Assembly: GCA_002293475.1 (NCBI GenBank)
Contig: DBDG01000059.1
Coordinates: 31,726-95,725, forward strand
Reading direction: 5' to 3'
From: Lachnospiraceae bacterium UBA938
GTDB taxonomy: Bacteria; Bacillota; Clostridia; Lachnospirales; Lachnospiraceae
DNA length: 64,000 nucleotides
In this document: positions 1 to 56,421 of the stretch, piece after piece
Position numbering within the stretch: position 1 is the first letter of the stretch
Layout of the letters: each line of letters begins with the position of its first letter
Position numbers and translations under genes: made by a program
The notes under the pieces: model-generated
What the model saw: the letters and a program-made list of their open reading frames with translations, nothing else
Databases searched by the model: none
What the model was told of the DNA's origin: nothing

Positions 1-580
1 AACCTATGAAGCAGTGGCCAATGCAGCGGTGGTGACGGTGAGACATGATGATACGGACATTCTGGCAGCAGCCCTGACGGTGCGGCCAGGCCGTGCTTGT
101 AGCAAGGAACAAGTTCAAGAGCATATCAGCCGGTATCTGCCGGATTATATGCGCCCCGGTAATATTTTGATCTTACCGGAGTTACCTATGACAAATAATA
201 ATAAGATAGATAAGAAAGCCATCGGCCGACTGATCATGGATAAGCTGACCGGGGAAACGGAAATACAAAACGATGCCGGCACAGAACAGGAAATCAGGCT
301 GAATATCATATGGAATGAAATCCTTAAGACCAAGGTAACCTCTGTTGATAAGGGCTTCTTTGAAGCCGGCGGCAACTCTTTATTACTTAATAAACTTGCT
401 TTGCGTCTTAAGAAAGAATATCACCAGGAAGTTGATATCGTTGAATTGCTGCGGTTTTCTACGATAAGGAAAATGGCGTTATATTTAAATAATAACGGAG
501 CGGCAAGTAAGCTTGATATGGAGAAGCTAAAAGAGACAGCAGGCAGGAGAGGCCGTTTTATACAAAGAAGGAAGATGTAA
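1..580 (+). CDS. NRPS, 3' part only (end of adenylation domain plus peptidyl carrier domain); the 5' end lies outside the window
   Basis: The frame is open from the window edge to the stop at 578-580 (ORF track 14..580). 'LPMTNNNKIDKKAI' fits the A10 core. 'FFEAGGNSLLLNKL' is the GGxS phosphopantetheine-attachment motif of a PCP. The stop is 4 nt before the next PKS gene. Confidence 0.8.
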   Translation, partial: TYEAVANAAVVTVRHDDTDILAAALTVRPGRACSKEQVQEHISRYLPDYMRPGNILILPELPMTNNNKIDKKAIGRLIMDKLTGETEIQNDAGTEQEIRLNIIWNEILKTKVTSVDKGFFEAGGNSLLLNKLALRLKKEYHQEVDIVELLRFSTIRKMALYLNNNGAASKLDMEKLKETAGRRGRFIQRRKM

Positions 581-584
581 TGAT

Positions 585-3500
585 ATGAGAGAACTCAAGG
601 ACAATGACATTGCCATTATCGGATATGCATTTGAACTGCCGGAAGGAATCAACACCAACGAAAAATTATGGGATGTGCTTAAAAACAGGCAGGATCTGGT
701 TAGGGAGATTCCCGCGAAGCGTTGGGACTGGCGGCAGATATATGATGAGAATCCCCAAGCGGAAGGTAAATCCTATTCCTATCATGGGGCTTTTCTGAAA
801 GATATCGAGCAATTTGATCCCAGTGCTTTTCGGATTATGCCGGTAGAAGCAAAAAGCATGGATCCTCAGCAGCGCCTTGTCTTACAGGCGGCTTGGCACG
901 CTATGGAAAACAGCTATCTAAATATCGAACAATTAAAACATTCTGATACCGGTGTCTTTATTGGCGCTACCATGGTTGATTATCTGCAGTTGCAGGTCAG
1001 AATGGATGAAGGGAAACATATTGACCGTTATACTCATTTTGGCAGCATATTGAATGATATCTCCGGACGAGTTTCTTATGTGTTCGGATTTCGAGGTCCT
1101 TCACTGACCATTGATACCGCCTGTTCCTCTTCGCTTACCGCGATTGACGCGGCCATTAAAGCATTAAAGGAAGGGGACTGTGAGATGGCGCTGGCCGGCG
1201 GCGTGAACGTCATCCTTACGGAAGAGATGTATATAAAACTGGCACGGGCCGAGATGCTGTCGAAAACCGGTGCATGCAAAACCTTTGATGACACTGCTGA
1301 TGGATATGTCCGGGGAGAAGGCTGCGGGATCCTAGTTCTTCAGAACTTAAAAAATGCAAGAGAAACGGGAAAACGGATTCTGGCAGTAATCCGCGGAAGC
1401 AGCATTAACCATAATGGTAATAGCGGCGGATTAACGGTGCCCAGTGGAAAGTCACAGACCATGCTGCTGCAAAGCTGTTTGAAAAAGGCCGGCGTTAAGC
1501 CGGAGGAAATTGATTATGTAGAAGCTCACGGTACAGGTACCCAGCTGGGCGATAAAATTGAAGTAAATGCTTTGCAGGATGTCTTTAAAGGCCGGAAGAA
1601 CCCGTTATTGATCGGCAGTATAAAAACCAATATGGGGCATCTGGAATCGGCCGCCGGCGTTGCCGGGGTTATTAAGGTTCTCCTTTGTATGGAGCATAAT
1701 GAGCTGGTGCCCGGCCTTCATCTTAAGCATAAGAATACGAAAATCAACTGGGATGATTCGCCTGTTGATGTACTTAAAGAAAATATCTTGTGGGAAAAGA
1801 CTATTAAACTTGCCGGAGTCAGCGCTTTTGGGGCAAGCGGAACTAACGGGCATATTATCATGCAAAAATATCAGGATGAGCAGCCGGCCGTCGATACAAA
1901 GGCGACGGGGAAGATTTATCTGGCTGTTTCCGCTAAAAGTAAAATATCACTGCAAAAAATACTGATTTCGCTGTCGACATTCATCAAGGATAAGGAAGAG
2001 CGGGAGCTACATGAAATTGCTAGGATATACAATGTGACAAGAAGCGGCTATGAAGAACGGGTGGTGGTCAGCGGAGTCGATAAAGATGAATTGGTCGCCG
2101 CTTTAAATGGGAAGATCGACGAAGCCTTACAGCCGGAAAAACCCAAAGAAGTACAAGACGCTTCTATTTGCGTTTTGTTATGTAATCTCGGCAACAGCCG
2201 GAAAGCATATGAGCAGCTGGAAGCTTTCAGTTTTACATACCGGCAATTGTCCAAAGAGATGCAGGAACAGCTATCCTTACCCACGGAAGACAAATCAGAT
2301 ATTATGCGAGGAATTGCTTTCTGCCGATATGTTGCCGGGATTGGATTCAAAAAATATCAGATTGCCGGTGATGAACTAGTTAAATTTCAAGTCATGCTGG
2401 CATCTAAAGACAGCCCGGCCTATGAAACAGAGATAGAGCGGTATCTCAACAAGGAGGCAGCCTTGTCCGAAGAATTGGCGGGGTTTATCAGTAAAATATA
2501 CGTATGGTCAGATTGTGCTGCGGCCGATAATCAATATTGGCCGGAAATATTGCTGGAAAATGCCGCATTACAATATCAAACAGGGGCAAAGATAAGGTGG
2601 GAATATTTTTACGATATTAATAAAATCAAGCTGTTATTTTTACCGGGCTATGAATTTGATAACCGTTATTACTGGCTGAACCACCAGCGCCATCTTATCG
2701 ATGATCTGAACAGAGCGGACCGTTCAAGTGAGTATCTTACTATGATTAAGCCGTCGGCCATTGATGATGACGGTCAGGAAGAAGCTGACAATGGACAGGG
2801 GTATAGGTTCCGGTTAAGAAGGGCGACTAGGCTTGTCGAACAGCATCAGATCGGTCATCGCGAAGTGCTGGTCGGTTCCTTTCAGATCATCCTGATTAAG
2901 GAGCTGGCCAGCCGCCTGCTGGGGGACAGGGTTGTAATTAAGGATCTGTTTTTTGTTCAGACCATTGAGCCTGAGACAGAACGGCTATTAAAGCTTAGAC
3001 TGGAAGCAAATCCGGAAACCGGAACAGGACGGTATGACGGCAGGATATGGGAGCTTAGTGATGATAATGAATGGGTCACTAAAACTCTTTTTGCTTGCTT
3101 AATAAAAAAGGACGGTTATGCTTCGGACACTGCTGCCGGCGATGAAGAATTTAGGGGCGAAATTATCGGAGAACAAACATTTTATCATGCTCTTTTCCAC
3201 GCGGGTCTGTATCTGGGCAGTGACTACCAGATCATGGATGCGGTTGTAAAGGGCGAGCGGGAAGCAATAGCAGTACTTAAGAAGACAGATTTTGAACCGG
3301 CGGTACTGGACAGCGCCTCGCAGCTATTATATTTATTCCGTGGGCAGGGAACGGATTTGTACCTGCCGTATTATTTTGCATCCTACGAGCAATGGGAAAC
3401 CCTTAAAAGAGTAAATCGTGTCGAGGCCAGACTGCTTAATGTAACGGAAGATGAAATAACGGCGGAACTATCTTATTATACGGACAGTTGTCTGACTGCG

Positions 3501-6044
3501 AGATTTAACGATTATCATTTAAAAAAGATCAAGAAGAGAGAGTTATGGTCGCTGGATCATATTATTGGCAAACGCTCTGGCTTGCCGGACGGAACGGAAT
3601 TGCGTCAGTATCATATTAAACTGGCCGGGACAAGCCTGCAAGACCATCAGGTATATCATCGCCTGACAATACCCGGATCATATTTTATATCGCAGGTAAT
3701 GCAGTTTGCCATGCATAAATTTCCGCAAGCAGCCTTTGAATTATCCGATATTAGTTTTTTTCAAGCGATGGTTCCGGACGAAAATGTCCCGGTAAAAGAA
3801 ATGATAACAGCAAGAAAAAATGACACCGGATATGTAATTGACATCTGTTCGGCTTATGGCAATCAGGATGAATTCATCAAGAACGCGGCAATAACTGTTA
3901 CCCCTAGGCAAGATTTACATGTCCGCATGGAGCCGGAACGGATGCCGGAACGGTCGGATTACGGCCGCCATGTTGAAAGGGCTAAGATCATTGAGATCCA
4001 GGCAAAAATAGGGCTGCAGCTAGGCGGCTCGTTCAATTGGATGCAAGACATCTGGGTGGGAGAAGACAGTGCTTTTGCTGAGTTGGCCAATGATGATTTT
4101 GCGATGCTTAAGGAAAACTATGGAACTCCACCGGGACTGATAGATACTTCGGCGCAAGTCTTGGGTTTTATTAAAAATAGCACGCAAGAAGAAGCCGGAG
4201 CCTACATACCGTTGACAATCAACCGGCTGATCCAGTATCAAAATCTTAAAAACCGATTATATTGCCTAGTTCGTAATGTTAAGGAAAACGGCTTAATGCT
4301 TGTTGGCGATATTTTATATTGTGATCCCGATACCGGCCAAAAGGTATTGGAATTTCAAGGGATGACGCTTATGAAAGCAGACAGGAACAAACTTGGCAGC
4401 ATCAAATCAAATAATAGCATGATATATGAAGAAAGCTGGGACGATTTTAGTGACGGGATTAGCGCAGAAGCGATCTCTTGCCGGTCGGCTGTCGAAATCA
4501 GGCTGGGTATTGACACAAAGAAAATCATTATTTCTAAGTACCGGGCGGCAGAAAAGGAATGGCTCATTCTAGACAAGATTGTGCTGGACTGGGAAGATAA
4601 AGCAGCTTGGAAAGAGGCGGTTATCAAGGAGATCAACTGTCCGGAACAGCTTTTGGTTATTTTATCCGACTCATCAGTGGGTTTACCTAGGCAGGTTCCG
4701 GTGGCGCGAATATCCGAAATAAATATATTGATCACACATTATTATTTAGAACTGTTTACCTTATTACATAAAATAGATTTCTCCAGCCATGTTCTATGCG
4801 TTGTTACCAATCAGGTATATAGCCGGGACGCTGCCGCAAATCTTTTTGGAAGCCTAGTCTGGGGAATGGTTCGCTCCATTCAATTAGAGCTGGCAGAGGA
4901 AAAGATAGTTTTGCTGGATAGTGACAGAAGTGCCTTTAATTTACTGCCAGTGCTAGGGAAGTTGGTAAGAAACCATATTATGCAAGTGACATATTATCAA
5001 GGCACGATAAGAACCCCCTCCCTTGCTACCACAAAAGCTGACGAGCTGTCATCTTCTGCTTATCGCTTTGCGGCTGAGAAAAGTTATCTTGTCATCGGCG
5101 GATTCGGGGCATTAGGCTTAGAAACATGCAAATACATGATTGAAGCAGGGGTGCGGAGATTAATTGTAATTGGCAGCAGCAGTCAGGAACAAAGGCAGCC
5201 GGAATATGATTCCCTGCATGAGATGCAGGATGGTTTAGATTTGCGTTATTATCAACTGGATATTGCTGCCGATAGCGCCGCCGCAGAGCTTTATCCGATT
5301 TTATCCGCGGAAAATCGTCTGGGTGGAATTATATATGCGGCAGGCGTAGTAAAAGATAAGATGTTCGCAAATTATACTGATGATGAGATCCGGTCTGTTT
5401 ACGGGGCTAAGATCAACGGAATGCTGACATTGGCAAAGATTCTCGACAATATAGAATATGATTTCTGTGTCGGATATTCTTCTGTTGTAGGGGTAATCGG
5501 CGCGGCCGGCCAGTCGGTCTATGGTGCCGCCAATAGCTTTATTGATGCCCTTTGCCGCAGTAAACGGGCGCAAGGTAAAAATATGTTTACGATCCAGTGG
5601 GGGCCTTGGTCGGAGATCGGCATGTTTTCTAAAGTCAATAATTTAGCGGTCAAACGCTTTGCTGACCGTAAGATATTTGCTATGGAGCCCCAAGAAGCAA
5701 TGGCGCGATTTCTAGTGAGCCTAAAACGGGGTACCAATCAAATGATCGTGAATAATAAGCAGATCGCTTTAGAAAAAAAGGGAAACATCACGGTATTTGA
5801 CCATGTTGAAGAATCCGTAAAGGAAAGATTAAAGAAAATCGTCGCCCAGGCGATAGGAACGGAACAAGCTGGACAGATAGAGGAAAGCCGCCGCTTAATG
5901 GATTTTGGTATTGACTCGCTGCTAATGATTGAGATCAGAATAAAGATAAATAAAATCTTTCATGTGTCCATAACGTTAGATGAGTTCTTTAATGAGATGA
6001 CAATTGAGAAATTAGCGGCAAGGATTGAATACACCAGTAAATAA
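585..6044 (+). CDS. AT-less (trans-AT type) polyketide synthase module: KS, two hot-dog/DH-like segments, KR, ACP
   Basis: KS motifs are DTACSSSL, EAHGTGTQLGD and KTNMGHLESAAG. Two DH-like stretches have degenerate HxxxGxxxxP motifs (HQIGHREVLVG; HQVYHRLTIPG). The KR has a Rossmann motif 'VIGGFGALGLE' plus 'YGAANSF'. The C-terminal carrier motif is 'DFGIDSLLMIEI'. No GHSxG acyltransferase domain is visible. Confidence 0.85.
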   Translation: MRELKDNDIAIIGYAFELPEGINTNEKLWDVLKNRQDLVREIPAKRWDWRQIYDENPQAEGKSYSYHGAFLKDIEQFDPSAFRIMPVEAKSMDPQQRLVLQAAWHAMENSYLNIEQLKHSDTGVFIGATMVDYLQLQVRMDEGKHIDRYTHFGSILNDISGRVSYVFGFRGPSLTIDTACSSSLTAIDAAIKALKEGDCEMALAGGVNVILTEEMYIKLARAEMLSKTGACKTFDDTADGYVRGEGCGILVLQNLKNARETGKRILAVIRGSSINHNGNSGGLTVPSGKSQTMLLQSCLKKAGVKPEEIDYVEAHGTGTQLGDKIEVNALQDVFKGRKNPLLIGSIKTNMGHLESAAGVAGVIKVLLCMEHNELVPGLHLKHKNTKINWDDSPVDVLKENILWEKTIKLAGVSAFGASGTNGHIIMQKYQDEQPAVDTKATGKIYLAVSAKSKISLQKILISLSTFIKDKEERELHEIARIYNVTRSGYEERVVVSGVDKDELVAALNGKIDEALQPEKPKEVQDASICVLLCNLGNSRKAYEQLEAFSFTYRQLSKEMQEQLSLPTEDKSDIMRGIAFCRYVAGIGFKKYQIAGDELVKFQVMLASKDSPAYETEIERYLNKEAALSEELAGFISKIYVWSDCAAADNQYWPEILLENAALQYQTGAKIRWEYFYDINKIKLLFLPGYEFDNRYYWLNHQRHLIDDLNRADRSSEYLTMIKPSAIDDDGQEEADNGQGYRFRLRRATRLVEQHQIGHREVLVGSFQIILIKELASRLLGDRVVIKDLFFVQTIEPETERLLKLRLEANPETGTGRYDGRIWELSDDNEWVTKTLFACLIKKDGYASDTAAGDEEFRGEIIGEQTFYHALFHAGLYLGSDYQIMDAVVKGEREAIAVLKKTDFEPAVLDSASQLLYLFRGQGTDLYLPYYFASYEQWETLKRVNRVEARLLNVTEDEITAELSYYTDSCLTARFNDYHLKKIKKRELWSLDHIIGKRSGLPDGTELRQYHIKLAGTSLQDHQVYHRLTIPGSYFISQVMQFAMHKFPQAAFELSDISFFQAMVPDENVPVKEMITARKNDTGYVIDICSAYGNQDEFIKNAAITVTPRQDLHVRMEPERMPERSDYGRHVERAKIIEIQAKIGLQLGGSFNWMQDIWVGEDSAFAELANDDFAMLKENYGTPPGLIDTSAQVLGFIKNSTQEEAGAYIPLTINRLIQYQNLKNRLYCLVRNVKENGLMLVGDILYCDPDTGQKVLEFQGMTLMKADRNKLGSIKSNNSMIYEESWDDFSDGISAEAISCRSAVEIRLGIDTKKIIISKYRAAEKEWLILDKIVLDWEDKAAWKEAVIKEINCPEQLLVILSDSSVGLPRQVPVARISEINILITHYYLELFTLLHKIDFSSHVLCVVTNQVYSRDAAANLFGSLVWGMVRSIQLELAEEKIVLLDSDRSAFNLLPVLGKLVRNHIMQVTYYQGTIRTPSLATTKADELSSSAYRFAAEKSYLVIGGFGALGLETCKYMIEAGVRRLIVIGSSSQEQRQPEYDSLHEMQDGLDLRYYQLDIAADSAAAELYPILSAENRLGGIIYAAGVVKDKMFANYTDDEIRSVYGAKINGMLTLAKILDNIEYDFCVGYSSVVGVIGAAGQSVYGAANSFIDALCRSKRAQGKNMFTIQWGPWSEIGMFSKVNNLAVKRFADRKIFAMEPQEAMARFLVSLKRGTNQMIVNNKQIALEKKGNITVFDHVEESVKERLKKIVAQAIGTEQAGQIEESRRLMDFGIDSLLMIEIRIKINKIFHVSITLDEFFNEMTIEKLAARIEYTSK

Positions 6045-7879: not shown

Positions 7880-9091
7880 TTACTCAACCTTGCCCGGCTT
7901 TACCAGCATGAAGGACACAATCAGTCCAACGATGTATAGAGCCGCGGTCACATACAGGACATGATTATAGGACTGACCGGTCATGTTTAGGATCAGAGAG
8001 CTCAACTGATTGCCGGCGATTCCAGCAAAAGCCCATGCGGAAAGTGCCAGTCCGTGTACCGCACTAATCGTTTTCATCCCGAAACGGTCGGAAAGCAGCG
8101 TGGGAAGATTACTGAATCCGCCGCCGTATCCAGCATTGACTACACATAACAGGATGATGACCAGAATGTCGAGCTGGCTGGTTATGCCGTTGGTGACAAA
8201 GGTAATGACCGAGAAGCCGGCCGATAAGATGAAAATCAGCTTGTATATCGTGTTCCGGTCTTTTAACTTGTCGGCTGCCGCCGACAAGCCGATCCGTCCG
8301 AAAGCATTGAAGAGAGCCGTCATGGAACAAAGGAAAGTAATCATGGACGCACCGATGCCGGCCGCGGTGTAGATGTATTTCTCTTGGGAAATAATCGCCA
8401 GCCCGCAGGTGATGTTTAAGAAAAACATTAGCCATATTCCGATAAAGGTTTTATTTTTAAAGATATCCGTAACTTTTGCATCGGATTTTTTGTGCGGTTC
8501 TTCGACCCAGCCGTCAGGTTTTTTAAGTAGCAGATGGCCGCAGTACATCATAATAAAATAAATGACCGCTAGGATATAAAACATATTTACGACCCCGAAA
8601 TTACTGATAAGAGAAGCCATGATGGGACTGGCAATCATCTTGGCCAGACCGAAGCCGGCTACGGCCAGGCCGGTAGCTAGGCCTTTCTGTTCTTTGAACC
8701 AGAGCATCAGCGTCTTGACTGGGGACAGATAACCGAAGCCGAGGCCGATCCCCATGATCACTCCGTAGAAAATAAAGATGCCGGGCAGGGATTTAAGATA
8801 AACGCACACGCCGGTGCCCACCATCCCGGCCGTAAAGCAGACTGCGGAGATCAGCGAGGACTTATGGATGTTTTTCTCCACGATATTACCGCCGAAAGCC
8901 GCCGACATCCCTAAGAAGAAGATAGCTAGGCTGAAAGCCCATTCCACCGGTGCCACATTGGTGCCGTAACCGATGGCATCGGCAATCTCCCCTTTGATCT
9001 GTGACCAGCAATATACGGTACCGATACTGCAGTGAATCAGCAGAGCCGGAATAGCCGCCCGTACCCATTTGTTATTCGATAATTTCTTCAT
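7880..9091 (-). CDS. MFS transporter (oxalate/formate-antiporter-like subfamily suspected)
   Basis: 403 aa with about 12 hydrophobic segments. The N-terminus 'RAAIPALLIHCSIGTVYCWS' is typical of OFA/YhjX-like MFS proteins. Confidence 0.7.
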   Translation of the reverse strand: MKKLSNNKWVRAAIPALLIHCSIGTVYCWSQIKGEIADAIGYGTNVAPVEWAFSLAIFFLGMSAAFGGNIVEKNIHKSSLISAVCFTAGMVGTGVCVYLKSLPGIFIFYGVIMGIGLGFGYLSPVKTLMLWFKEQKGLATGLAVAGFGLAKMIASPIMASLISNFGVVNMFYILAVIYFIMMYCGHLLLKKPDGWVEEPHKKSDAKVTDIFKNKTFIGIWLMFFLNITCGLAIISQEKYIYTAAGIGASMITFLCSMTALFNAFGRIGLSAAADKLKDRNTIYKLIFILSAGFSVITFVTNGITSQLDILVIILLCVVNAGYGGGFSNLPTLLSDRFGMKTISAVHGLALSAWAFAGIAGNQLSSLILNMTGQSYNHVLYVTAALYIVGLIVSFMLVKPGKVE

Positions 9092-10597: not shown

Positions 10598-13500
10598 ATG
10601 GGAAACGTGAAACGCATCTATGTGGAAAAAAAGCCCCCGTTTGCGGTGAGAGCGAAGGAACTCAAGGAGGAAATCATCAGTTATCTGGAAATGCCGGATA
10701 TTAAGGACGTAAGAGTACTGATAAGATATGACGTGGAAAACATTTCGGAGGAAATATTCTTAAGAGCGTGCGATACTGTGTTTTCTGAACCGCCGGTAGA
10801 TATTTTATACCTAGAGAACATTGCCATCCCGGAGAACGGCAGGGTGTTCAGCGTCGAATACCTTCCCGGCCAGTTTGACCAGCGGGCGGATTCGGCGGAA
10901 CAATGCATCCGGTTTCTAAGCGAAGAGGAAGAGCCGGTGATCAAAACGGCGACAACATATTTAATAACAGGTGATATCACGGACGAAGCATGGAACCGGA
11001 TCAAGGCTTATTGTATCAACCCGGTCGATTCCCGGGAAACCGGCATGGTCAAGCCTGAGACGTTGATAACCGCATACGACGAGCCACAGGACATCGGCAT
11101 CCATGACGGCTTCGCCGCTATGTCCATAGCGGATCTGGCGGAGCTCTACGATACTCTCGGTCTGGCCATGACCTTCAAGGACTTTCTGCACATCCAAAAA
11201 TATTACCGGGAAGAGGAACACCGTGATCCCACCACCACAGAAATCAGGGTAATGGACACCTATTGGTCCGACCACTGCCGTCATACCACCTTTTCCACCG
11301 AACTCACCCAGGTAGAATTTGCCGAAGGCTATTACCGCACTCCCATGGAAACCACCTACCAAAGCTATCTTGATACTAGGGCGGAACTGTTTAAGGACCG
11401 TGACGATAAATACATCTGCCTGATGGATCTGGCACTGCTGGCTATGCGCAAGCTGAAAAAAGACGGAAAACTGACGGATATGGAAGAATCCGATGAAATC
11501 AATGCCTGCTCGGTCATCGTGCCCGTGGAAATCGACTACGGACAAGGCCCCATAACCGAAGAATGGCTGGTCTTTTTCAAAAACGAAACCCACAACCACC
11601 CGACCGAGATTGAACCTTTCGGCGGGGCGGCCACCTGTCTGGGCGGAGCTATCAGAGATCCTCTGTCCGGCCGTGGTTATGTATATCAGGCGATGCGGGT
11701 AACCGGCGCGGCCGACCCCACCGTTCCCGTATCGGCGACCTTAAAGGGTAAGCTGCCGCAGAAAAAACTGGTCCGCGGCGCGGCCGCCGGTTATTCCTCT
11801 TACGGAAACCAGATCGGCCTGAACACCGGCTATGTCAAAGAAATATATCACCCCGACTATGTGGCCAAAAGAATGGAAATTGGCGCGGTCATGGGAGCCG
11901 CACCCCGCGACTGCGTGATCCGCGGCGGCACCGCTCCCGGTGACGTCATCATTTTGCTAGGCGGCCGGACCGGCCGCGACGGCTTAGGCGGCGCGACCGG
12001 CTCTTCCAAAGTACATACCGAAAGCTCAATCGAGACCTGCGGCGCCGAAGTCCAGAAAGGCAATCCCCCCACCGAGCGCAAGATCCAGCGCCTGTTCCGT
12101 CGCGGGGAAGTCAGCAGATTAATTAAAAAATGCAACGACTTCGGTGCCGGCGGCGTATCAGTCGCCATCGGCGAGCTGGCCCCCGGCCTGATCGTCGATC
12201 TGGATAAAATACCGAAGAAATATGCCGGCCTGGACGGCACCGAACTGGCGATCTCCGAATCCCAGGAGCGGATGGCGGTAGTTGTCGCCCCCGAACATGC
12301 CGACCTGTTCCTTAGCTTTGCTGCCGGGGAAAATCTCGAAGCTGTTCCTGTCGCCGAAGTGACCGCGTCTAAACGCTTGGTTCTAAGATGGCGGAATCGC
12401 GAAATCGTCAATATTTCCCGGGCCTTCTTAGACACCAACGGTGCCCATCAGGAGGCGGCCGTCAAAGTAGACATTCCTTCCGAAGCCGATAATTATTTCC
12501 GCAAGGCGGCAGTAAAAGGCGTCGCTGAAGCCGTGACGGATGGCGACATCCAAAAAGCTTGGCTTACAGTGCTAGGAGACCTGAACGTCTGCTCCCAAAA
12601 AGGCTTGGTGGAAATGTTCGACTCTTCCATCGGAGCCGGTAACGTGGCCATGCCTTACGGCGGCCGATACCAGCTGACCGAATCCCAGGCCATGATCGCC
12701 AAGTTGCCGCTTTTAAAAGGAAAAACCGACACCGTGACGATGATGAGCTACGGCTTTGATCCATACCTGTCTTCCTGGAGCCCTTATCACGGTGCCGTCT
12801 ATGCTGTAACTGAGTCCATGGCTAAGATTGTGGCCAGCGGCGGCGACTACCGGACGATCCGCTTTACCTTCCAGGAGTATTTCCGGCGCATGACCGATGA
12901 CCCGGAACGTTGGAGCCAGCCCTTTGCCGCCTTACTCGGCGCTTACGATGCCCAGACCGGCTACGGCCTCCCCTCTATCGGCGGCAAAGACAGTATGTCC
13001 GGCACCTTCAACGACATCGACGTACCGCCGACCTTGGTCTCTTTCGCCGTAAACATTGCCCGAGGCAATCACATAATAACCCCGGAACTGAAAAAAGCCG
13101 GCAACAAACTGGTTCATTTTCTCATCACCAGAGACGAATACGATCTGCCCATATATGAGCAGGTCTGCGAAACCTACCAGCAGATCACCGCGATGATCGG
13201 TGAAGGCGTGATCATGTCCGCCTACGCCTTGGATGCCAAGGGACTTGCCGCTGCCCTCAGCAAAATGGCTTTCGGTAATCGCCTTGGCATATCAATCGCC
13301 GCCGACATCCCGCCCCAAAAGCTCTTCCAGAACAATCTGGGCGGCATCGTAGCCGAAATAACCCCCGAAGCCCAGGCAAAACTGGAACAACTTGACCTCA
13401 AATACCGCATCATCGGAACCGTGACCGCAGAAGCCGTCATCACATATCAGGACATGAACCTGCCACTAGACAAAGCGCTCGCGGCATGGACAGCCACACT

Positions 13501-14398
13501 GGAAAAAGTGTTCCCGACCCGCGTCAGCGCCGACCGCACCGTCATAGAGCCCCCCCTGTACAAGGCCGGTTCCATCTATGTATGCAAGGAAAAAATCGCT
13601 AGGCCGACCGTGTTCATCCCCGTATTTCCCGGAACCAACTGCGAATACGACACCAAGATAGCCTTTGAGCGCGCCGGTGCCAAAGTAATCGATAAAGTCT
13701 TCCGTAACCAGACGGCAGATGACATCAGGGAATCGGTAAAGGAATACACCGAAGCCATCACCCGTTCCCAGATCATCGTGTTCCCCGGCGGCTTCTCCGC
13801 TGGCGACGAACCGGACGGCAGCGCGAAGTTCTTTGCCACCGCCTTCCAAAACAGCAAGCTGAAAGAAGCCGTCATGGATCTGCTCTATCAACGCGACGGC
13901 CTTGCCCTTGGCATCTGCAACGGTTTTCAGGCCATGATCAAGCTAGGCCTAGTTCCTTTCGGGGAAATCATCGGTCAGAAAGAAGATTCGCCGACCCTGA
14001 CATTTAATACGATTAACCGCCTGATATCCAAGATGGTGTACATCAAAGTAGTTTCGGATAAATCCCCTTGGCTGCAGGAAGCGGGTCTCGGCAGTACATA
14101 TGTAAATCCGGTTTCCCATGGCGAAGGCCGGTTTGTGGCCTCTAAGGAGCAGATCAGCCGTCTGCTGGCGGCGGGTCAGGTGGCTACCTGTTACGCGGAT
14201 CCAGAGGGGAATATTTCGATGGACGAAGAGTGGAATGTCAATGGCTCGTATGCCGCGGTTGAGGGGATTACCTCCCCGGACGGGCGGTGCTATGGCAAGA
14301 TGGCACATTCAGAACGGATTTCGGAAGGTGTGGCGGTCAATATTTATGGGGAGCGGGATATCAGGATATTTGAGTCCGGGGTGCGGTACTTTCAGTGA
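10598..14398 (+). CDS. purL: Phosphoribosylformylglycinamidine (FGAM) synthase, single-chain large form
   Basis: 1266 aa with an AIR-synthase-like repeat. The C-terminal class I glutamine amidotransferase has 'GICNGFQ' (nucleophile Cys) and 'HGEGRF'. Confidence 0.9.
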   Translation: MGNVKRIYVEKKPPFAVRAKELKEEIISYLEMPDIKDVRVLIRYDVENISEEIFLRACDTVFSEPPVDILYLENIAIPENGRVFSVEYLPGQFDQRADSAEQCIRFLSEEEEPVIKTATTYLITGDITDEAWNRIKAYCINPVDSRETGMVKPETLITAYDEPQDIGIHDGFAAMSIADLAELYDTLGLAMTFKDFLHIQKYYREEEHRDPTTTEIRVMDTYWSDHCRHTTFSTELTQVEFAEGYYRTPMETTYQSYLDTRAELFKDRDDKYICLMDLALLAMRKLKKDGKLTDMEESDEINACSVIVPVEIDYGQGPITEEWLVFFKNETHNHPTEIEPFGGAATCLGGAIRDPLSGRGYVYQAMRVTGAADPTVPVSATLKGKLPQKKLVRGAAAGYSSYGNQIGLNTGYVKEIYHPDYVAKRMEIGAVMGAAPRDCVIRGGTAPGDVIILLGGRTGRDGLGGATGSSKVHTESSIETCGAEVQKGNPPTERKIQRLFRRGEVSRLIKKCNDFGAGGVSVAIGELAPGLIVDLDKIPKKYAGLDGTELAISESQERMAVVVAPEHADLFLSFAAGENLEAVPVAEVTASKRLVLRWRNREIVNISRAFLDTNGAHQEAAVKVDIPSEADNYFRKAAVKGVAEAVTDGDIQKAWLTVLGDLNVCSQKGLVEMFDSSIGAGNVAMPYGGRYQLTESQAMIAKLPLLKGKTDTVTMMSYGFDPYLSSWSPYHGAVYAVTESMAKIVASGGDYRTIRFTFQEYFRRMTDDPERWSQPFAALLGAYDAQTGYGLPSIGGKDSMSGTFNDIDVPPTLVSFAVNIARGNHIITPELKKAGNKLVHFLITRDEYDLPIYEQVCETYQQITAMIGEGVIMSAYALDAKGLAAALSKMAFGNRLGISIAADIPPQKLFQNNLGGIVAEITPEAQAKLEQLDLKYRIIGTVTAEAVITYQDMNLPLDKALAAWTATLEKVFPTRVSADRTVIEPPLYKAGSIYVCKEKIARPTVFIPVFPGTNCEYDTKIAFERAGAKVIDKVFRNQTADDIRESVKEYTEAITRSQIIVFPGGFSAGDEPDGSAKFFATAFQNSKLKEAVMDLLYQRDGLALGICNGFQAMIKLGLVPFGEIIGQKEDSPTLTFNTINRLISKMVYIKVVSDKSPWLQEAGLGSTYVNPVSHGEGRFVASKEQISRLLAAGQVATCYADPEGNISMDEEWNVNGSYAAVEGITSPDGRCYGKMAHSERISEGVAVNIYGERDIRIFESGVRYFQ

Positions 14399-14403
14399 GT
14401 GTT

Positions 14404-14481
14404 CAGCAGGTTTGTTGGCTTAATGGTCATGGACATATTGCCCAGCAGGTTTGTTGGCTTAATGGTCATCGACATATTACC
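14404..14481. repeat. Tandem direct repeat, 2 x 39 bp
   Basis: cagcaggtttgttggcttaatggtcat[g/c]gacatatt[g/a]cc occurs twice. The second copy runs into the left palindromic unit. Confidence 0.9.
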
Positions 14482-14723
14482 CAGCAAATCATCTGATCCG
14501 GTTCCGGCTCCCGAAAATAAGTGCAACTAAGTTTCCCGCCCGTGTTACCGGCCACTTCCGCTACCGGCGTTCAAGCGCCATCCATGGCGCGTGAAGCCTT
14601 GGTCGGACATCCGTGTCCGACCATAGCTAGGCTTATCTTATGCGAGAAACTAAGATGCACTAATTTTCTCCCGCAAGTCACCGGCTCAGATGATTTGCTG
14701 GGCAATATGTCGATTCGGTATTC
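14464..14723 (+). repeat. Palindromic rod-like unit, left copy (~260 nt, terminal 31-nt inverted repeats)
   Basis: 14469-14499 is complementary to 14683-14713 (29/31). Inner stem 14513-14539 pairs with 14642-14668. Internal hairpins are gcgcca-tcca-tggcgc and gtcggacatccgtgtccgac. Confidence 0.85.
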
Positions 14724-14895
14724 TGACCGGTAAGTTTGTATTGGGATTCACTTAGCATATTAAACATAAGACTCATTATTAGTTTCCATTCACGAGGCTA
14801 GATCCCACCATATATTGCGATAAACTGCATAGAGCTCATTATCCCAGTTAATGCTGAACAAAAATAATCAAGTGGTATACACAAGCCTACTAGTT

Positions 14896-15155
14896 GGAAT
14901 ACCGAATCGCCATATGGCCCAAGCATCATCGGCTCAGGTGACTTGCGGGAGAAAAATAGTGCATCTTAGTTTCTCACGTAAGATGAGCCTAGCTATGGTC
15001 GGACATGGATGTCCGACCAAGGCTTCACGCGCCATGGATGGCGCTTGAACGCCGATAGCGGGAGTAGTTAAAACTGAGGGGTGAGGAACTTAGTTGCACT
15101 TATTTTCGGGAGCCGGAACCGGAGCCGATGATGCTTGGGCCATATGGCGATGACC
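14896..15155 (-). repeat. Palindromic rod-like unit, right copy, inverted relative to the left copy (roughly 85-90 percent identical by eye)
   Basis: The reverse complement aligns end to end with 14464-14723. Its own termini 14907-14936 and 15121-15150 are complementary (29 nt perfect). Confidence 0.85.
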
Positions 15156-15245
15156 GCCCAAGCGAGAACCTAAGGCGCTGACCGCCCAAGCGAGAACCTA
15201 AGGCGATGACCGCCCAAGCGAGAACCTATGGCGCTGACCGCCTAG
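15150..15245. repeat. Tandem direct repeat, about 3.4 x 28 bp
   Basis: [a/c]tgaccgcccaagcgagaaccta[a/t]ggcg occurs at 15150, 15178 and 15206, with a partial copy at 15234. Confidence 0.9.
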
Positions 15246-15268
15246 CACTATATGAGGAGTTTAACACA

Positions 15269-17995: not shown

Positions 17996-18108
17996 ATCTA
18001 TCTCCGGCAGGTAAATACCTTGCCATATGAGAAGTGCTTATAGGCATTGATCAGGGGCATTTTTGAGTAACCTATTTTTGGTTTCAAAAAATCGGAGGTT
18101 TAGATAAT

Positions 18109-19371
18109 ATGAATGTGAATATGTATGTGAATATGAAGGAGAAACGAAATAAGAGAAATAAGATAAGTAAGATAAGTAAGATAAGTAAGATAAGTAAGGC
18201 GGCAACTATATTTTGGGTTTTGATGTTTGTTTTAGTGAGCATATCTGGTTGCAGTCAGAACAATATTGCAGTTGATAACGAACAGATATCGGCAGAGAAT
18301 GAACAGGCAGATAATGAACAGGCAGATAATGAACAGACAGATAATGAACAGACACCGGCAGATCAGACGGATAGTCAGTCTGTGGAGGATCAGCCAGAAG
18401 AGAAAATAAGTATTGTCTGTACGATTTTTCCGCAGTATGACTGGGTGCGGGAGATTTTAGGCGACAGGACAGAGGATGTGGAACTGACGCTTTTGCTGAA
18501 CGGAATGGCCGATCTTCACAGTTATCAGCCTACGGTAGAGGATATTGTAAAAATATCAAGCTGCGATCTGCTTATCTATACTGGCGGCGAATCTGACGTT
18601 TGGGTGGAGGATGTGCTTCAAGATGCAACGAATCCGAATATGGTGATCATCAATCTTCTGGAGTCTCTGGGAGATGCCGCCAAGTTAGAAGAGATACTCG
18701 AAGGCATGGAAGATGATGGGCACGAGCATGGCAGCGAAGAAGCGCACGAGGGCGAAGAAGCGCATGAAGACGATGAAGCGCATGAAGACGATGAAGCGCA
18801 TGAAGACGATGAAGCCCATGATGATCATGAAGAGGTACTTGATGAACATGTGTGGATGTCACTTAAAAATGCTGAGACGCTCTGCTTAGTTATTGAAGAG
18901 ACATTGTCTGTTCTGGATTCTGAGCATGCCGAGCAGTATGAAAGCAATATGCTCACATATGTAGAAAAACTTTCAACCTTAGACAGGCAGTATCAGGAGG
19001 CAATAGGTGCAGCACCGAATAAGACCTTGTTAATCGGGGATCGGCATCCTTACCGCTATCTGTTGGATGACTATGGCTTGAGCTGCTTTGCGGCCTTTGT
19101 CGGATGTTCAGCCGAAACTGAGGCGAGCTTTGAGACGATTGTCTTTTTATCAAAGAAGCTTGATGAGCTGGATCTGAAGCATGTTATCGTGACAGAAAGC
19201 ACTGATCAAGCCTTGGCCAATACCATTATTGAAAACAGCACGGACAAAGATCAGAGGATTCTTGTGCTGGACTCCCTGCAGTCTGTGACGACGCAAAATA
19301 TGGGGGAAGGCATGACGTATCTTTCCATCATGGAGAGCAACCTAGATGTATTAAAAGAAGCTGTGGGATAA
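18109..19371 (+). CDS. znuA: Metal (probably zinc) ABC transporter substrate-binding lipoprotein, ZnuA/AdcA-like
   Basis: Lipobox 'LVSISGCSQ'. His/Asp/Glu-rich loop 'HEHGSEEAHEGEEAHEDDEAHEDDEAHEDDEAHDDHEE' is typical of Zn-specific cluster A-I binding proteins. It is followed by ATPase and permease genes. Confidence 0.75.
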   Translation: MNVNMYVNMKEKRNKRNKISKISKISKISKAATIFWVLMFVLVSISGCSQNNIAVDNEQISAENEQADNEQADNEQTDNEQTPADQTDSQSVEDQPEEKISIVCTIFPQYDWVREILGDRTEDVELTLLLNGMADLHSYQPTVEDIVKISSCDLLIYTGGESDVWVEDVLQDATNPNMVIINLLESLGDAAKLEEILEGMEDDGHEHGSEEAHEGEEAHEDDEAHEDDEAHEDDEAHDDHEEVLDEHVWMSLKNAETLCLVIEETLSVLDSEHAEQYESNMLTYVEKLSTLDRQYQEAIGAAPNKTLLIGDRHPYRYLLDDYGLSCFAAFVGCSAETEASFETIVFLSKKLDELDLKHVIVTESTDQALANTIIENSTDKDQRILVLDSLQSVTTQNMGEGMTYLSIMESNLDVLKEAVG

Positions 19372-35283: not shown

Positions 35284-38200
35284 ATGCAGAAATTAATTGA
35301 TTTTAAATATATTGATATTGAAGAAGGTAAGGACTGGGACAGACTCCCCGAAACCGACCGGAAAAATATTGCGGTAATCGGCCTGTCGGCAAAATTAGGA
35401 GGAACTAAGAATAAGGAGGACCTCTGGAGAATGTTGGCAGACGGCAAAGATGCCATAAAGCCCTTTCCGGAGCAAAGAAGGCAGGATGTAAACCGTTATC
35501 TGAATTCTTTGCGGTTATATCCAGACAAGATAGACTATCACCATGGGGCATACATGGAAGAAATAGATAAATTTGACTATAAGTTTTTTAAGATTTCTAA
35601 AAAGGAAGCCGACCTGATGGAGCCGAATCAGAGAGCATTCTTAGAAACGGCATGGGAAGCAGTCGAGGACGCCGGTTATGGGGGAGCGCAGTTATCCGGC
35701 AAAAACATAGGTGTCTTCTTAGGATATAGTTCTGACTTCGGCGAAGAGTATAAAAAGATAGTCCAGATGATGGATCCGGCCAGTGCAAAACTGGCTGCTA
35801 CCGGGAACATCAAATCGATTATTTCAAGCAGAATCTCTTATTTATTAGACCTGCACGGTCCCAGTGTGATGATTGACACAGCCTGCTCCTCTAGTCTTGT
35901 GGCGATTCATGAGGCCTGCCGCTCGATCAGGAACGGGGAATGTGAGGCGGCGATTGCCGGCGGCGTCAAGATTCTGATGATACCGGGAACAGCAGAGAGC
36001 TGTGCTGAAGCAGGAATCCATATTATAAGCGATATTTTGTCTTCAGACGGAAAGACGAGGACATTTGACGACAATTCGGACGGTACCATGCTGGGAGAGG
36101 GAACAGCAGCCGTTTTGCTTAAGCCTCTGAACCGGGCTATCGTGGATAAAGACCATATATATGCTGTTATCAAAGGCAGTGCCATCAATCAGGATGGCGG
36201 TTCAATTGGGATCACGGCACCCAATTCAGCGGCCCAGGAAGAGGTGATCTGCAAAGCATGGAGGGATTCGGACATTGCCGTGGACACTATTTCCTATATC
36301 GAGGCACACGGAACGGGAACAAGGCTAGGGGATAGCGTGGAGATTAACGGATTAGAAAGGGCATTCCGTAAGCACACTGATAAAAAGCAGTTCTGCGCAA
36401 TCAGTTCCATTAAGACAAATATCGGACATCTGGACTGTACTGCCGGAATATCCGGTTTTACCAAAGCCATTCTTTCTTTACACAAGAAAAAGCTGCCGCC
36501 CAGTCTTAATTTTACTTGCCCGAACAGAAACATCCCGCTTGTGGATTCCCCAGTATTCATCAATGACAGCCTGACTGACTGGGATACCGGAGACATTCCC
36601 AGAAGATGCGGGGTAAGCTCATTTGGACTCAGCGGCACCAATTGCCATATTATCCTGGAAGAGGCTCCGGTTATGGAAGTAACGGAAGTAAGTAAGGGAA
36701 TTAAGAGGACAAACCTGTTTGTTCTATCCGCGCAAGACCCCCATTCCCTAAAGGCAATGGTAATAAAATATATTGATTATTTCTATACCGATAACCCGGC
36801 TTCCATAAACGACATATGCTACACTGCCAGCATAGGCAGAGGGCATTACCGGTACCGCTTGGCCATACCGGTAAAGAGTATTGAAGAGTTAGAATGTAAG
36901 CTGGTTTTACTGCAATCCAATAACTTCCAATATGATAAGGTAAAGGACGTGTATTATGGAGAACACATAGTAGTAAGCCAGGCTAAGGAGGACAAGGAAC
37001 AAGGCGACATCACCGCGGAAGAAAAGCGCAGTCTTACGGCACAGGCTAATTCCTTGATACAATATTTTATCACAGGCCGGACAACTGCTGAACAATATAA
37101 TAATCTAGCGAACTGCTATATCAGAGGGGCTGATATAGCATGGGAAACATTGTATCATGCCGGAAGCTATCGGAGAGTAAACCTGCCGACCTATGCGTTT
37201 TTAGAAACCAGATGCTGGGTAGAGGATAACGGTAATAAAATTAATACGATGCCCCAAAAGACTGATTCAATAAGTCCGTTGATTGATACCCGTCTGGCCA
37301 AGACCTTGAGCCAGGAGATTTACACGACCTGTTTTAGGGTAGAGCGGCAGTGGGTTTTACGGGAGCATAAAGTGTTCGGCAAATATGTTGTTCCCGGGAC
37401 GGCCTATATTGAAATGCTAAGGACAGTACTGGATAAAGGGAGCAGTGCCCAGCATGTGATGATACGGGATCTCAAATTTACCGCCGCACTTGCGTTGGAA
37501 GAAGCTGAAGAAAGAGAAGCCCATCTGCTCATCCGGGATCTAGGTGACCACATAGAATATGAGATTGCCAGCAAGAGTGAAAAGTCGGATGAATGGGTGA
37601 TACATGTGAGCGGGGAAGCTGTATATGTTACCGAAGCAGGGGAAGAGGCATGGGATCTTACGGAACTCCTTTCCCGGTTTACCAAAACCGATGCCCTGAC
37701 GTACCGGCAGTTCCCGGATAACCCGATTCAAACCGGAGCCAGATGGGATACCTATGGTCAGATATTCCATAAGGCAGATGAATACGTTTCCCATATTAAG
37801 CTTGCGGAAAGCTACCACGAGGATCTGCAGGAGTACTTTATCCATCCTTCCATGATGGATTGTGCGGTCAATACGGCCAATGCGTTTATCGGAGACGGAT
37901 ATTACCTGCCATTTTCCTATAAGAAACTAATAATATATGGTGCGACTCCGCCGTCTTTTTATTGTCATCTTAAACGGAAGGATAAGCACAATAGTGATGA
38001 AACGGCAACCTTTGATATTGTATTTCTGGATATGGAAGGCAAAGTTTTATTGAAAGCAGAAGAATATGTCATCAAGAAAGTCAGAGATTCCATCAAAGAA
38101 AACCGCGCAGACAGTTATTATCGGACCGCATGGGTCAAGAAGCCGGCAACTGAGCTAAGAGCCGGCTTGGCGACCGGACGCGTGCTGGTATTCACCAGCG

Positions 38201-53674: not shown

Positions 53675-53747
53675 CGGGGTGTGGCTCAGGTGGTAGAGCG
53701 CTACTTTAGGGAAGTAGAGGCCGCAAGTTCAAGTCTTGTCACTCCGA
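53675..53747 (+). tRNA. trnP: tRNA-Pro with apparent anticodon AGG
   Basis: Hand fold. Acceptor CGGGGTG/CACTCCG, U8, D arm GCTC-AGGTGGTA-GAGC. Anticodon stem CTACT/AGTAG with loop TTAGGGA (U33, A34 G35 G36, G37). T arm GCAAG-TTCAAGT-CTTGT. Discriminator A. Confidence 0.8.
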
Positions 53748-55274: not shown

Positions 55275-56421
55275 TCTTTTGGAGATTGTCACATAAAAGA
55301 TAAGTTTCTGGCTAATAAATTCGCGGAACATATCATTAAGGAAAGGCACATTAAAAAGATCAATAGTCAGATTCACGTATATCAGAATGGTATTTATGTG
55401 TCAGGACGTATTGCGATAGAAAGGGCAATGCTGGGTGAAATCCCTTCTTTGTCATCACATAACCGCAGTGAAGTACTTAAATATTTAGAAGTCATGTGTG
55501 ATGAAGCGGAAGCAGCAGAACTAAACTTGATAGCCTTTAAGAATGGTATTTATGACATTGATTCTGACCGGCTGATACCGTTTGACCCCAATATTATAAT
55601 CACAAATATGATACCGTGGAATTATAACCGTGATGCCAAGTCCAATCTGGTAGATAAGGTTTTTTACGATATATCATGCGGTGATGAAAATATCAGATAT
55701 CTATTGGAAGAAGCTGCCGGTTCATGCTTTTACCGGTCAAATAAAATAGGTGGTGGTAAAACATTCGTGTTAACAGGCGGTAAAAACAACGGTAAATCAA
55801 CATATTTAGATATGGTCAAGTGCATGATCGGTAAAGGGAACTACTCTTCTTTGGATTTAATGGAACTTTCAGATCGGTTTCGCACTGCTGAAATGTTCGG
55901 TAAGTTGGCTAATATTGGTGACGATATATCAAGTGATTATCTGCAAGGTAAGCAGCTATCTATATTTAAGAAGATAGTCACCGGAGAAAGTATAACGATA
56001 GAGCGTAAAGGGCAAGATCCATTTGACTTTGATCCGGTACAAAAGCAGTTTTTTTCGGCTAATGATATCCCCCGAATGAAGGACCATACCGGAGCAGTAT
56101 TAAGGAGACTGCTAATTATTCCCTTCAATGCCACATTTGACAAGTCCGATCCGGATTATGATCCGAATATCGGAAATAAATTGAATCAGGCTGAACATAT
56201 GGAGTATTTCATTCAGTGTGCTTTAGAGAGTCTATAAGCGGTATCAAGTATTCTGTGCTGACAACGGTTTTCAGCCGGGAAGTAATTTGACGTTTTCAAA
56301 GAATATTAACCGAGCATTAGGAACTGAATCAGTAAATAAGAGAATCAATAGTAAGGTAATCAAGGTTTTTGTACATTCTGTAGCGGTTATGTACAACTTA
56401 TTATATATTATATACAGTTGA
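55275..56421 (+). pseudogene. P4/D5-family primase-helicase, truncated at the N-terminus and frameshifted near the C-terminus
   Basis: The frame opens right after a TAA at 55272-55274 with 'DKFLANKFAEHIIKERHIKKINSQIHVYQNGIYV', with no plausible start codon and no primase domain. Walker A is 'GGKNNGKST'. After the stop at 56237, another frame encodes a typical C-terminal tail 'FSKNINRALGTESVNKRINSKVIKVF' ending at 56421. Confidence 0.6.

Follow-up and report, generated by a model that had tools for sequence, protein, structure and literature searches.

TwoAYGGAY (Rfam RF01731) is an RNA family first described from human-gut metagenomes, Clostridia, and gamma-proteobacteria, and its discoverers rated the motif a probable RNA that is not cis-regulatory, noting that its P1 stem is "often very large (e.g., 24 base pairs ...)" (Weinberg et al. 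2010, PMC2864571). Rfam assigns the family to CL00106, its clan for the binding of Csr-Rsm proteins, and labels it 'Cis-reg'. A match to the CsrA motif has been reported for it and a sequestration of CsrA in Clostridia proposed, the proposal being experimentally untried there (PMC4333381), and no functional study of the family was found in the literature. TwoAYGGAY has thus been an orphan since 2010; the sole functional idea is that it might be the CsrA sponge of Clostridia, a group from which no RNA of that kind is known. Here we describe a 64,000-nt stretch of DNA from Lachnospiraceae bacterium UBA938 (contig DBDG01000059.1; the whole stretch is called the window below) in which the spacer between a purL-type open reading frame (ORF) and a membrane-protein ORF carries two inverted TwoAYGGAY copies, termed units L and R. 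The locus adds a new and well-conserved member to this orphan family.

A cmscan search against Rfam 15 matched both units to RF01731 over model positions 1-168 of 168, with 105.8 bits for the core of L (14506..14675, minus strand) and 100.6 bits for that of R (14944..15114, plus strand), the gathering score of the model being 43 bits. The original prediction, made from the letters of the sequence, had assigned the units to no named RNA family or repeat class, which turned out to be wrong; the Rfam scan that it had itself proposed as a check returned TwoAYGGAY for both. The two small internal hairpins that it had pointed out, GGTCGGACA/TGTCCGACC and GCGCCA/TGGCGC, are the two AYGGAY-loop hairpins behind the name of the family. 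They lie at 14601-14622 and 14575-14590 in L and at 14997-15018 and 15029-15044 in R, and their terminal loops read ACGGAU and AUGGAU in L and AUGGAU in both hairpins of R. With TwoAYGGAY, the units of the window share the full-length match, the two AYGGAY-type loops, and a very long closing P1, and like the family they are not tied to a particular gene. The host range also fits (gut Clostridia), the homologues of the flanking proteins bearing Lachnospiraceae names and related units occurring in Roseburia, Dorea, Eubacterium, and Lachnospiraceae genomes. No disqualifying difference was found; only the rod extends further, since the RF01731 model ends about 35 bp before the true rod end and the outer arms of 34-35 bp prolong the modeled stem.

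The 870-bp spacer is intergenic, as had been claimed, and all five parts described in it were recovered at their places by Tandem Repeats Finder (TRF), repeat search, and folding. The purL-type ORF (10598-14398, 1266 aa, with Pfam hits to AIRS_C and GATase_5 on record for the same protein) ends at 14398, and the membrane-protein ORF, which has no Pfam hit, most likely starts at a TTG at 15269 preceded by GAGGAG. Unit L is a 247-nt rod with its RNA sense on the minus strand (14468..14714), delimited by its fold, its stem arms, and a covariance model of our own, and its outer stem arms (14468-14502 and 14680-14714, 35 nt) are 94% complementary. Sequence and paralogue alignment place a GACC tail (GGTC on the plus strand) at 14464..14467, and a conserved 19-nt 5' leader, TTACCGGTCAGAATACCGA in RNA sense, occupies 14715..14733, where the similarity among paralogues begins. 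Unit R, delimited in the same way, is a 246-nt rod with its RNA sense on the plus strand (14906..15151), with outer stem arms at 14906-14939 and 15118-15151 (34 nt, 97% complementary) and with its leader, CTACTAGTTGGAATACCGA, at 14887..14905, likewise defined by paralogue alignments. The two units are 85-86% identical, and their RNA senses both point outward from an AT-rich central spacer (14734..14886, without assigned strand), the interior of which is conserved neither between species nor among paralogous pairs; the GC content of positions 14724-14895 is 36%, versus 45% for the whole window. A tandem duplication of 2.1 x 39 bp (TRF, 14404..14486, 95% matches) overlaps the RNA-sense 3' end of L, and another of 3.5 x 28 bp (TRF, 15146..15242, 94% matches) begins within the final 6 nt of the 3' stem arm of R. 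Each unit folded into a single rod with the stem arms and both hairpins present, in agreement with the long palindromes proposed. No third copy was found anywhere in the 64-kb window by blastn, by the Rfam scan, or by our covariance model with filters off.

As RNA, unit L was predicted to fold at -144.1 kcal/mol (z -12.2) and unit R at -143.9 kcal/mol (z -12.5), and none of 200 shuffled controls folded as well as either. The compensating changes reported between L and R proved real: in an alignment of four sequences, namely, L, R, and the orthologous pair described below, compensatory double changes occurred in 10 of 91 predicted pairs. We then aligned 28 close paralogues of the subfamily of the window, recovered from a scan of metagenome contigs, and covariation support held when these further copies were included. 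RNAalifold predicted 83 pairs, 35 of which covary, and standard pairs filled 98.0% of the cells, versus 88.2% with the partners shuffled, none of 500 shuffles reaching the observed value. When the registers were slid by 1-3 columns, pairing fell to 35-48%. In the true register, double changes were seen in 225 cells, whereas 72 were expected. The outer helix was paired in 99.2% of its cells, and of its 37 pairs 20 covary. Across the 28 paralogues, the ~10 bp at the very end of the rod (ATCGyCATAT / ATATGrCGAT) hardly vary, while the inner stem covaries. GGA is retained in both loops in 27 of the 28, and more GGAs stand in or beside internal loops.

The wobble pairs reveal the strand. In the rods of diverse members, G.U exceeded A.C by 81 to 14, and in the close subfamily by ~36 to 11 (counted from the pair table, one conserved U.G being excluded); A.C is what a G.U wobble on the opposite strand would appear as. 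With our covariance model, L scored 141 bits (minus strand) and R 140 bits (plus strand), the antisense scores being 17-19 bits. Since covariation exceeded its controls, G.U outnumbered A.C, and the model score was strand specific, it is strongly supported that selection maintains the single-stranded fold of one particular strand. The proposal of selection on a folded RNA or single-stranded DNA (ssDNA) is thus borne out by the 28 paralogues, by the excess of G.U over A.C, and by a conservation between orthologues above that of neutral sites; the strand data alone do not separate RNA from ssDNA.

A function of the double-stranded DNA would be another way to account for so regular a palindrome, either through cruciform extrusion or through the binding of a nucleoid or topology protein, as proposed for some sites of repetitive extragenic palindromes (REP) or bacterial interspersed mosaic elements (BIME), the RNA being irrelevant. 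The nearly perfect helices (99.2% of outer-helix cells paired) would suit it, as would the intergenic positions, the random orientation with respect to genes, and the tendency of assemblies to break or fold back at the palindromes. The strand-asymmetric excess of G.U over A.C is, however, unexpected for a duplex or a symmetric cruciform, and so are the conservation of asymmetric internal loops and of the apical domain and the 140 bits on one strand versus 17-19 on the other. We therefore regard this explanation as very improbable.

The age of the pair is apparent from an orthologous locus. A homologue with 68% identity to the membrane protein is encoded on contig L120 (GCA_002293525.1), where the gene order is that of the window (TetR-purL-spacer-membrane gene) and the 1252-bp spacer contains a divergent TwoAYGGAY pair, L' and R', scoring 94 and 109 bits and lying 691 bp apart. 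TRF detected no tandem repeat in the L120 spacer, and R' has a degenerate two-copy end duplication. Judged by the outer stem, L clusters with L', as R does with R'; the pair is therefore older than the split of the two species and has not been homogenized since. Between the two loci, identity is 87% for L/L' and 92% for R/R', 84% for purL DNA, 63% for the tetR-purL intergenic region, and 55-60% at four-fold degenerate sites, and the interiors of the central spacers cannot be aligned beyond ~20-25 nt next to each rod. These identities demonstrate that purifying selection acts strongly on the units and not on the spacer, and that the pair has been inherited vertically. One partner may be under weaker constraint, as L' is the less conserved unit (87% versus 92% for R') and its loop 1 (L120 4886-4919) reads ACGAAU rather than ACGGAU, the GGA having become GAA. 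The orthologous series ends at L120: a membrane-protein homologue with 58% identity has a different synteny and no element upstream, and exact-protein look-ups with the membrane protein (three starts and the cluster representative) and with a 138-aa ORF gave no match. A short-read contig with an identical purL, L119, ends within the 39-bp repeat (L119 7802-7877 corresponds to window 14399-14474).

The conserved position of R raises the question of whether it is a cis-regulatory 5' leader of the membrane-protein gene, in line with the Rfam label 'Cis-reg', with L as a decaying duplicate. R does share the orientation of the gene, the likely start of which is 117 nt farther downstream, an arrangement also found in the orthologue, and R is better conserved than L (92% versus 87%), L' having lost one GGA. 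Against this, 51 surveyed units were neither biased in orientation toward the downstream gene nor associated with a common class of genes, the authors of the family scored the motif as not cis-regulatory (PMC2864571), and the 58%-identical homologue has no element upstream. A role as a leader of this one gene accordingly appears highly unlikely.

Beyond the window, a degenerate two-hairpin pattern scan matched more than 118 genomic stretches. Among the matches listed, full-length rods were found in Lachnospiraceae, other Clostridia, and Psychromonas, and Pseudomonas and several other groups had only the two-hairpin core; hits in Pseudomonas, Halieaceae, and spirochaetes that were core-only or below threshold were excluded from conclusions on the rod. 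In Pseudomonas, cores of two GGA hairpins without the long rod form arrays of up to four in tandem (L038 3588-4743, L098 1550-3068, and L092 649-1087; model positions 45-113, 43-53 bits), which may constitute a distinct Rsm-like class. The clostridial members all folded into 230-330-nt rods with near-perfect outer stems of 25-45 bp and of unrelated sequence, and decayed copies without the 3' half or arm were also seen (L058 and L094). At least 5 units are present in one Lachnospiraceae isolate genome, and 4 lie on the finished 243-kb replicon of Roseburia sp. 831b, where 2 occupy gaps between the genes of a cobalamin operon. The numbers for metagenome-assembled genomes are probably underestimates, because the palindromes break or fold back short-read assemblies.

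A single 19-mer scan of metagenome contigs yielded ~31 units of the subfamily of the window. Its module is ~270 nt long and sharply bounded, comprising a 19-nt leader (consensus CTACCAGTTGGAATACCGA), a rod of ~247 nt, and the GACC tail; GATGAC is invariant in 28 of 28 paralogues, and the final C is nearly always present. Identity among the paralogues has a median of 80% and a maximum of 92%, the latter being that of the orthologous pair of window R and L120 R', so that no near-identical copies, above 92%, exist among the 28; the paralogues are old. No target-site duplication was detected, the longest word shared by the 25 nt upstream and downstream averaging 4.00 nt, versus 4.14 nt in mismatched controls. 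The 51 surveyed units were all intergenic, except for 2 overlaps with heuristic ORFs, and shared no class of neighboring gene. Their orientation relative to the neighboring genes is random, with 21 genes in the same and 22 in the opposite orientation on the 5' side and 21 and 23, respectively, on the 3' side. In the first ~30 nt past GATGACC, the 3' flanks of the 28 subfamily units are rich in A and C (A 32%, C 35%, G 18%, T 16%), and CCAAC-like words are frequent. A helix between leader and 3' flank (GUUGG with CCAAC) was considered and rejected, as it scored 5.00, versus 5.02 in mismatched or shuffled controls.

Signals for the transcription of the units as genes of their own were sought at several levels. 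At the locus of the window, a consensus scan gave one promoter-like site (14789-14816, facing R), with 1.6 expected by chance, and no terminator-like sites. Neither a consistent promoter nor a consistent terminator was found in 18 diverse units, and upstream of 27 close-paralogue leaders there was no enrichment of a -10 element at any fixed distance; a -10 just upstream of the leader that had been seen by eye reflected only AT-richness. With respect to carriage by mobile DNA, none of 50,697 phage records gave a match and no IMG/VR viral contig held a full unit. The only plasmid record with units was the 243-kb Roseburia replicon, which is typed as non-mobilizable and carries housekeeping genes; a link to the IS110 transposases on that replicon was rejected, as they lie kilobases from the units. 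In Lachnospiraceae and related Clostridia, TwoAYGGAY forms an intergenic repeat that is multi-copy, has sharp boundaries, and lacks a promoter.

Adjacent units follow a strict rule of arrangement. Among the matches listed, adjacent TwoAYGGAY pairs in Firmicutes were divergent (-,+), with the leaders facing each other, at 13 of 13 independent loci, and no convergent or tandem pairs were found; were the four arrangements equally likely, this outcome would have a chance of ~1.5e-8. The loci are the window with its orthologue L120; L002 and L048, whose units are near-identical and which were counted once; L065, L001, L016, L152, L140, L130, L172, L147, L157, and L129; and a Roseburia locus (L185 25497-25673 and 27819-27989). 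The distance between paired cores ranges from ~80 to 2000 bp, and the GC content of the spacers is 28-48% in 14 pairs, with one exception. Outside the leaders and stem arms, blastn and tblastx revealed no conserved content in the central spacers of these 14 pairs; the spacer of the window and the 691-bp spacer of L120 have no similarity except directly beside the units, and the Roseburia spacer contains three operon genes. Partners often were not each other's closest relatives (similarity ranks of 8, 4, 15, 2, 2, 26, and 1 of 27), and the pairs of L129, L130, and L147 are of mixed subtype, so that the pairs are not simple local inverted duplications. In Psychromonas (L070), a (-,+,-) run was found, and the head-to-head rule may be specific to Firmicutes. 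An apparent tandem (+,+) pair in L154 (QMCE01775636.1) was discarded as a fold-back of the L152 locus (8488-8737): it starts with the unit read forwards and continues as the reverse complement of the sequence that precedes this unit in L152. An artefact of short-read assembly is the most likely cause, with a flip of the apex in vivo as the less probable alternative.

The divergent arrangement would be expected if L and R were independent small RNA (sRNA) genes transcribed from a bidirectional promoter in the AT-rich spacer and acting as classical CsrA sponges. The 13 of 13 divergent pairs, the AT-richness of the spacers, the promoter-like site facing R, and the membership in the Csr-Rsm clan together with the reported match to the CsrA motif (PMC4333381) all point in this direction. 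The lone promoter-like site is, however, at chance level (1 versus 1.6), no -10 enrichment precedes the 27 leaders, and terminators are absent. Moreover, spacer interiors that are unconserved, vary from 80 to 2000 bp, and in Roseburia contain three operon genes fit poorly with a shared promoter, many units are solitary and randomly oriented, and copies are far more numerous than those of known sponge RNAs. On this evidence, we consider autonomous divergent sRNA genes quite unlikely.

The tandem repeats next to the two units turned out to be a trait of the family, and those of the window are by-products of the element rather than independent features. Both lie at the RNA-sense 3' ends of their units. 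Each 39-bp copy consists of the last 19 nt of the 3' stem arm of L, the GACC tail, and ~16 nt of flank, and the 28-bp copies repeat GGCG(A/C)TGACC plus flank. At least 12 subfamily units have such 3'-end duplications, with repeats of 16-39 nt starting with GATGACC, and a few have a duplicated leader at the 5' end; in other subfamilies, end duplications occur at the 3' end in L068 and L108 and near the 5' end in L016 and L065. Altogether, duplications of the 3' flank were recorded in L152, L141, L148, L140, L129, L130, L147, L174, L150, L157, L068, and L108, and those of the 5' flank in L141, L131, L016, and L065. Family-wide, the repeat unit of 15-70 bp is composed of the terminal bases of the unit and the adjacent flank, and its sequence differs each time. 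In the TwoAYGGAY alignment of the family's authors, Psychromonas ingrahamii (NC_008709) has a ~70-nt sequence (..ACACGCCGUCAGGGCGGAAGACCAACAA..AAGCGAAAGCCU..) once or twice downstream of its units; flanking repeats on the 3' side are thus not confined to Firmicutes.

It had been argued from the diverged terminal stems that the units are not an ordinary MITE (miniature inverted-repeat transposable element). This argument, for which only two copies had been compared, stands in part. The absence of target-site duplications and of near-identical copies agrees with it; on the other side, the outermost ~10 bp and the GACC tail are nearly invariant, the ends are sharp, and the element is multi-copy, and for these reasons its dispersed-repeat nature must enter any explanation. 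One such explanation is that the units are non-autonomous DNA resembling MITEs or REPINs (REP doublets forming hairpins), in which an ssDNA hairpin is recognized by a transposase encoded elsewhere, either HUH-type as in REP-associated tyrosine transposases (RAYTs) or of another kind. In that case, covariation and conserved termini would result from the capacity for transposition, and the GGA hairpins would be incidental or serve the enzyme. The multiple copies with sharp ends, the near-invariance of the tail and of the outermost ~10 bp of both arms beside a covarying inner stem, and the decayed copies without a 3' arm (L058 and L094) are as expected, and the non-closest partners and mixed-subtype pairs point to separate adjacent insertions, not local duplication. 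REPINs, too, are inverted doublets and vertically long-lived (PMC3116915; bioRxiv 10.1101/2021.07.10.451892), and the excess of G.T over A.C fits a strand-specific DNA hairpin equally well.

Several observations speak against mobility of this kind. Target-site duplications are absent (4.00 versus 4.14 nt in the mismatched controls), no copies are near-identical (median 80%, maximum 92% for orthologues), no empty site was found, and no transposase is present among the major ORFs of the window. Phage records and viral contigs contained no full units, and of the plasmid records only that of the 243-kb Roseburia replicon did. Locus-specific conservation far exceeds that of neutral sites, and the conservation of the apical domain extends over 100 nt and from Clostridia to Psychromonas, which is far more than hairpin-recognizing transposases are known to need. 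We therefore hold it unlikely that the units are mobile DNA of this kind.

On balance, we somewhat favor a composite reading, in which the units are head-to-head TwoAYGGAY RNA modules that present two GGA hairpins, with CsrA as the leading candidate partner. The selected form would be RNA, produced when transcription of neighboring genes or of the AT-rich spacer crosses a unit, without a promoter of the unit's own; we infer RNA as the selected molecule because the conserved apical domain is large and asymmetric and because copies lie inside operons. The long helix would provide a stable scaffold and perhaps also a site for RNase III, as in Correia elements, and the rod would display the conserved apical domain, with its two hairpins and their loop GGAs ~29 nt apart. 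Such a geometry would suit a dimeric RNA-binding protein, for which CsrA is the best candidate given the Csr-Rsm clan of Rfam and the published motif match (PMC4333381). Taken alone, the CsrA step is tentative, an analogy that is possible rather than probable. A unit would then recruit or titrate the protein on any transcript that contains the unit in sense orientation. Replication slippage where a very stable hairpin has its base would be the simplest origin of the end duplications, and, more speculatively, the near-perfect Watson-Crick pairing may be aided by correction at the DNA level between the arms of the palindrome.

This composite of RNA modules and a GGA-binding protein has several points against it. 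RNA is inferred only from the strand-asymmetric wobbles and the complexity of the apical domain, and an ssDNA hairpin formed by that strand would leave an identical signal. As orientation is random, roughly every second copy would be antisense in any mRNA that crosses it, and at least one conserved copy, L', is without a canonical site. Known CsrA sponges are few and strongly promoted genes, and not dozens of promoter-less copies with perfect 30-bp helices. An outer helix with 99% Watson-Crick pairs exceeds the usual need of an RNA, and DNA-level correction of the palindrome may contribute to it. Finally, the model does not predict the strict head-to-head pairing and leaves the spread of the copies and the CA-rich 3' flanks unexplained. 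A further hypothesis would join the RNA modules to dispersal: TwoAYGGAY rods may be REPIN-like, vertically persistent, non-autonomous elements that in Clostridia spread CsrA-type GGA-hairpin modules across transcripts, with the head-to-head pairs, often of mixed subtype, and the end duplications being footprints of an undescribed hairpin-dependent insertion without target-site duplication. We offer this as a conjecture that is more probably wrong than right.

Relative to the family literature that we found, the present results are modestly novel in the leader, the GACC tail, the sharp multi-copy nature, the head-to-head pairs, and the end duplications; the promoter-less nature, the random gene orientation, and the lack of target-site duplication are absent from it as well. 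The question thereby moves from which gene the RNA regulates to what a genome gains from dozens of protein-binding rods, and to their origin. These regularities make the biology of TwoAYGGAY more testable, and test systems are at hand in a cultured carrier, Roseburia sp. 831b, and in a pair conserved in two species; Lachnospiraceae isolate B94_19_ER_BP is another cultured carrier.

The window contains other features away from this locus. A secondary-metabolite cluster lies at 14-6044, where the end of an adenylation/carrier-protein ORF (14-580) is followed by a 1819-aa polyketide synthase (ketosynthase-dehydratase-ketoreductase-acyl carrier protein). A second cluster, at 23737-47375, comprises genes for B12-radical S-adenosylmethionine (SAM) and PqqD-like radical SAM proteins, two ATP-binding cassette (ABC) exporters, a nonribosomal peptide synthetase module (condensation-adenylation-thiolation), a free acyltransferase, a 3100-aa ORF (35284-44586), and a 906-aa ORF without a Pfam hit. 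Short-period tandem repeats of 6-18 bp (18106-18351 and 18735-18833) lie within a gene for a ZnuA-type metal-binding lipoprotein (18109-19371) that stands upstream of ABC ATPase and permease genes. At 55398-56237, a primase-like ORF (D5_N and DUF5906) is found amid tRNA genes (53675-53747 and 56857-56928) and short ORFs without Pfam hits, and this region may be the remnant of an integrated element.

When the units are compared with described systems, the sponges of clan CL00106 (CsrB and CsrC as well as RsmX, RsmY, and RsmZ) likewise carry GGA in hairpin loops, and TwoAYGGAY offers two sites spaced suitably for a CsrA dimer. The CsrA consensus from systematic evolution of ligands by exponential enrichment is RUACARGGAUGU, to which the loop hairpin ACAYGGAUGU of TwoAYGGAY is close. 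A TwoAYGGAY unit has two loop GGAs, whereas known sponges have 7-22. It also differs from CsrB-type sponges in having no promoter or terminator of its own, in occurring in dozens of copies, and in its 110-bp rod; a CsrA-binding role has been proposed for it (PMC4333381) and makes it a candidate only. With MITEs, the element shares conserved terminal inverted repeats, but it has no target-site duplication; it is multi-copy, but no two paralogues are more than 92% identical, and the pair was retained in the one orthologous comparison. In BIMEs, neighboring units of different subtype are inverted, as in the TwoAYGGAY pairs.

REPINs and REP-BIME elements (PMC3116915, PMC3337134) are likewise dispersed intergenic palindromic hairpins without a classical target-site duplication, and REPINs persist vertically over long times as diverged populations within genomes. 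Set beside the REPIN doublet, the rod of the window consists of two arms, and the orthologous pair is retained across species. The TwoAYGGAY units differ from REPINs in being 2-3 times longer, in their complex, conserved, and asymmetric apical domain, and in their Firmicutes hosts, and no RAYT or other transposase is linked to them, none of this kind being present in the window. The Correia elements of Neisseria (PMC2649163), as well as the enterobacterial repetitive intergenic consensus (ERIC) and BOX elements, are also rod-like intergenic repeats that are co-transcribed with neighboring genes. Correia elements differ in their TA target duplications, integration host factor sites, outward promoters, and length of 100-155 bp, and none of the three has GGA-loop hairpins. 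As RNA, the hairpins of these repeats are bound or cut by RNase III and change the expression of neighboring genes, and a promoter-less rod could plausibly act in this manner.

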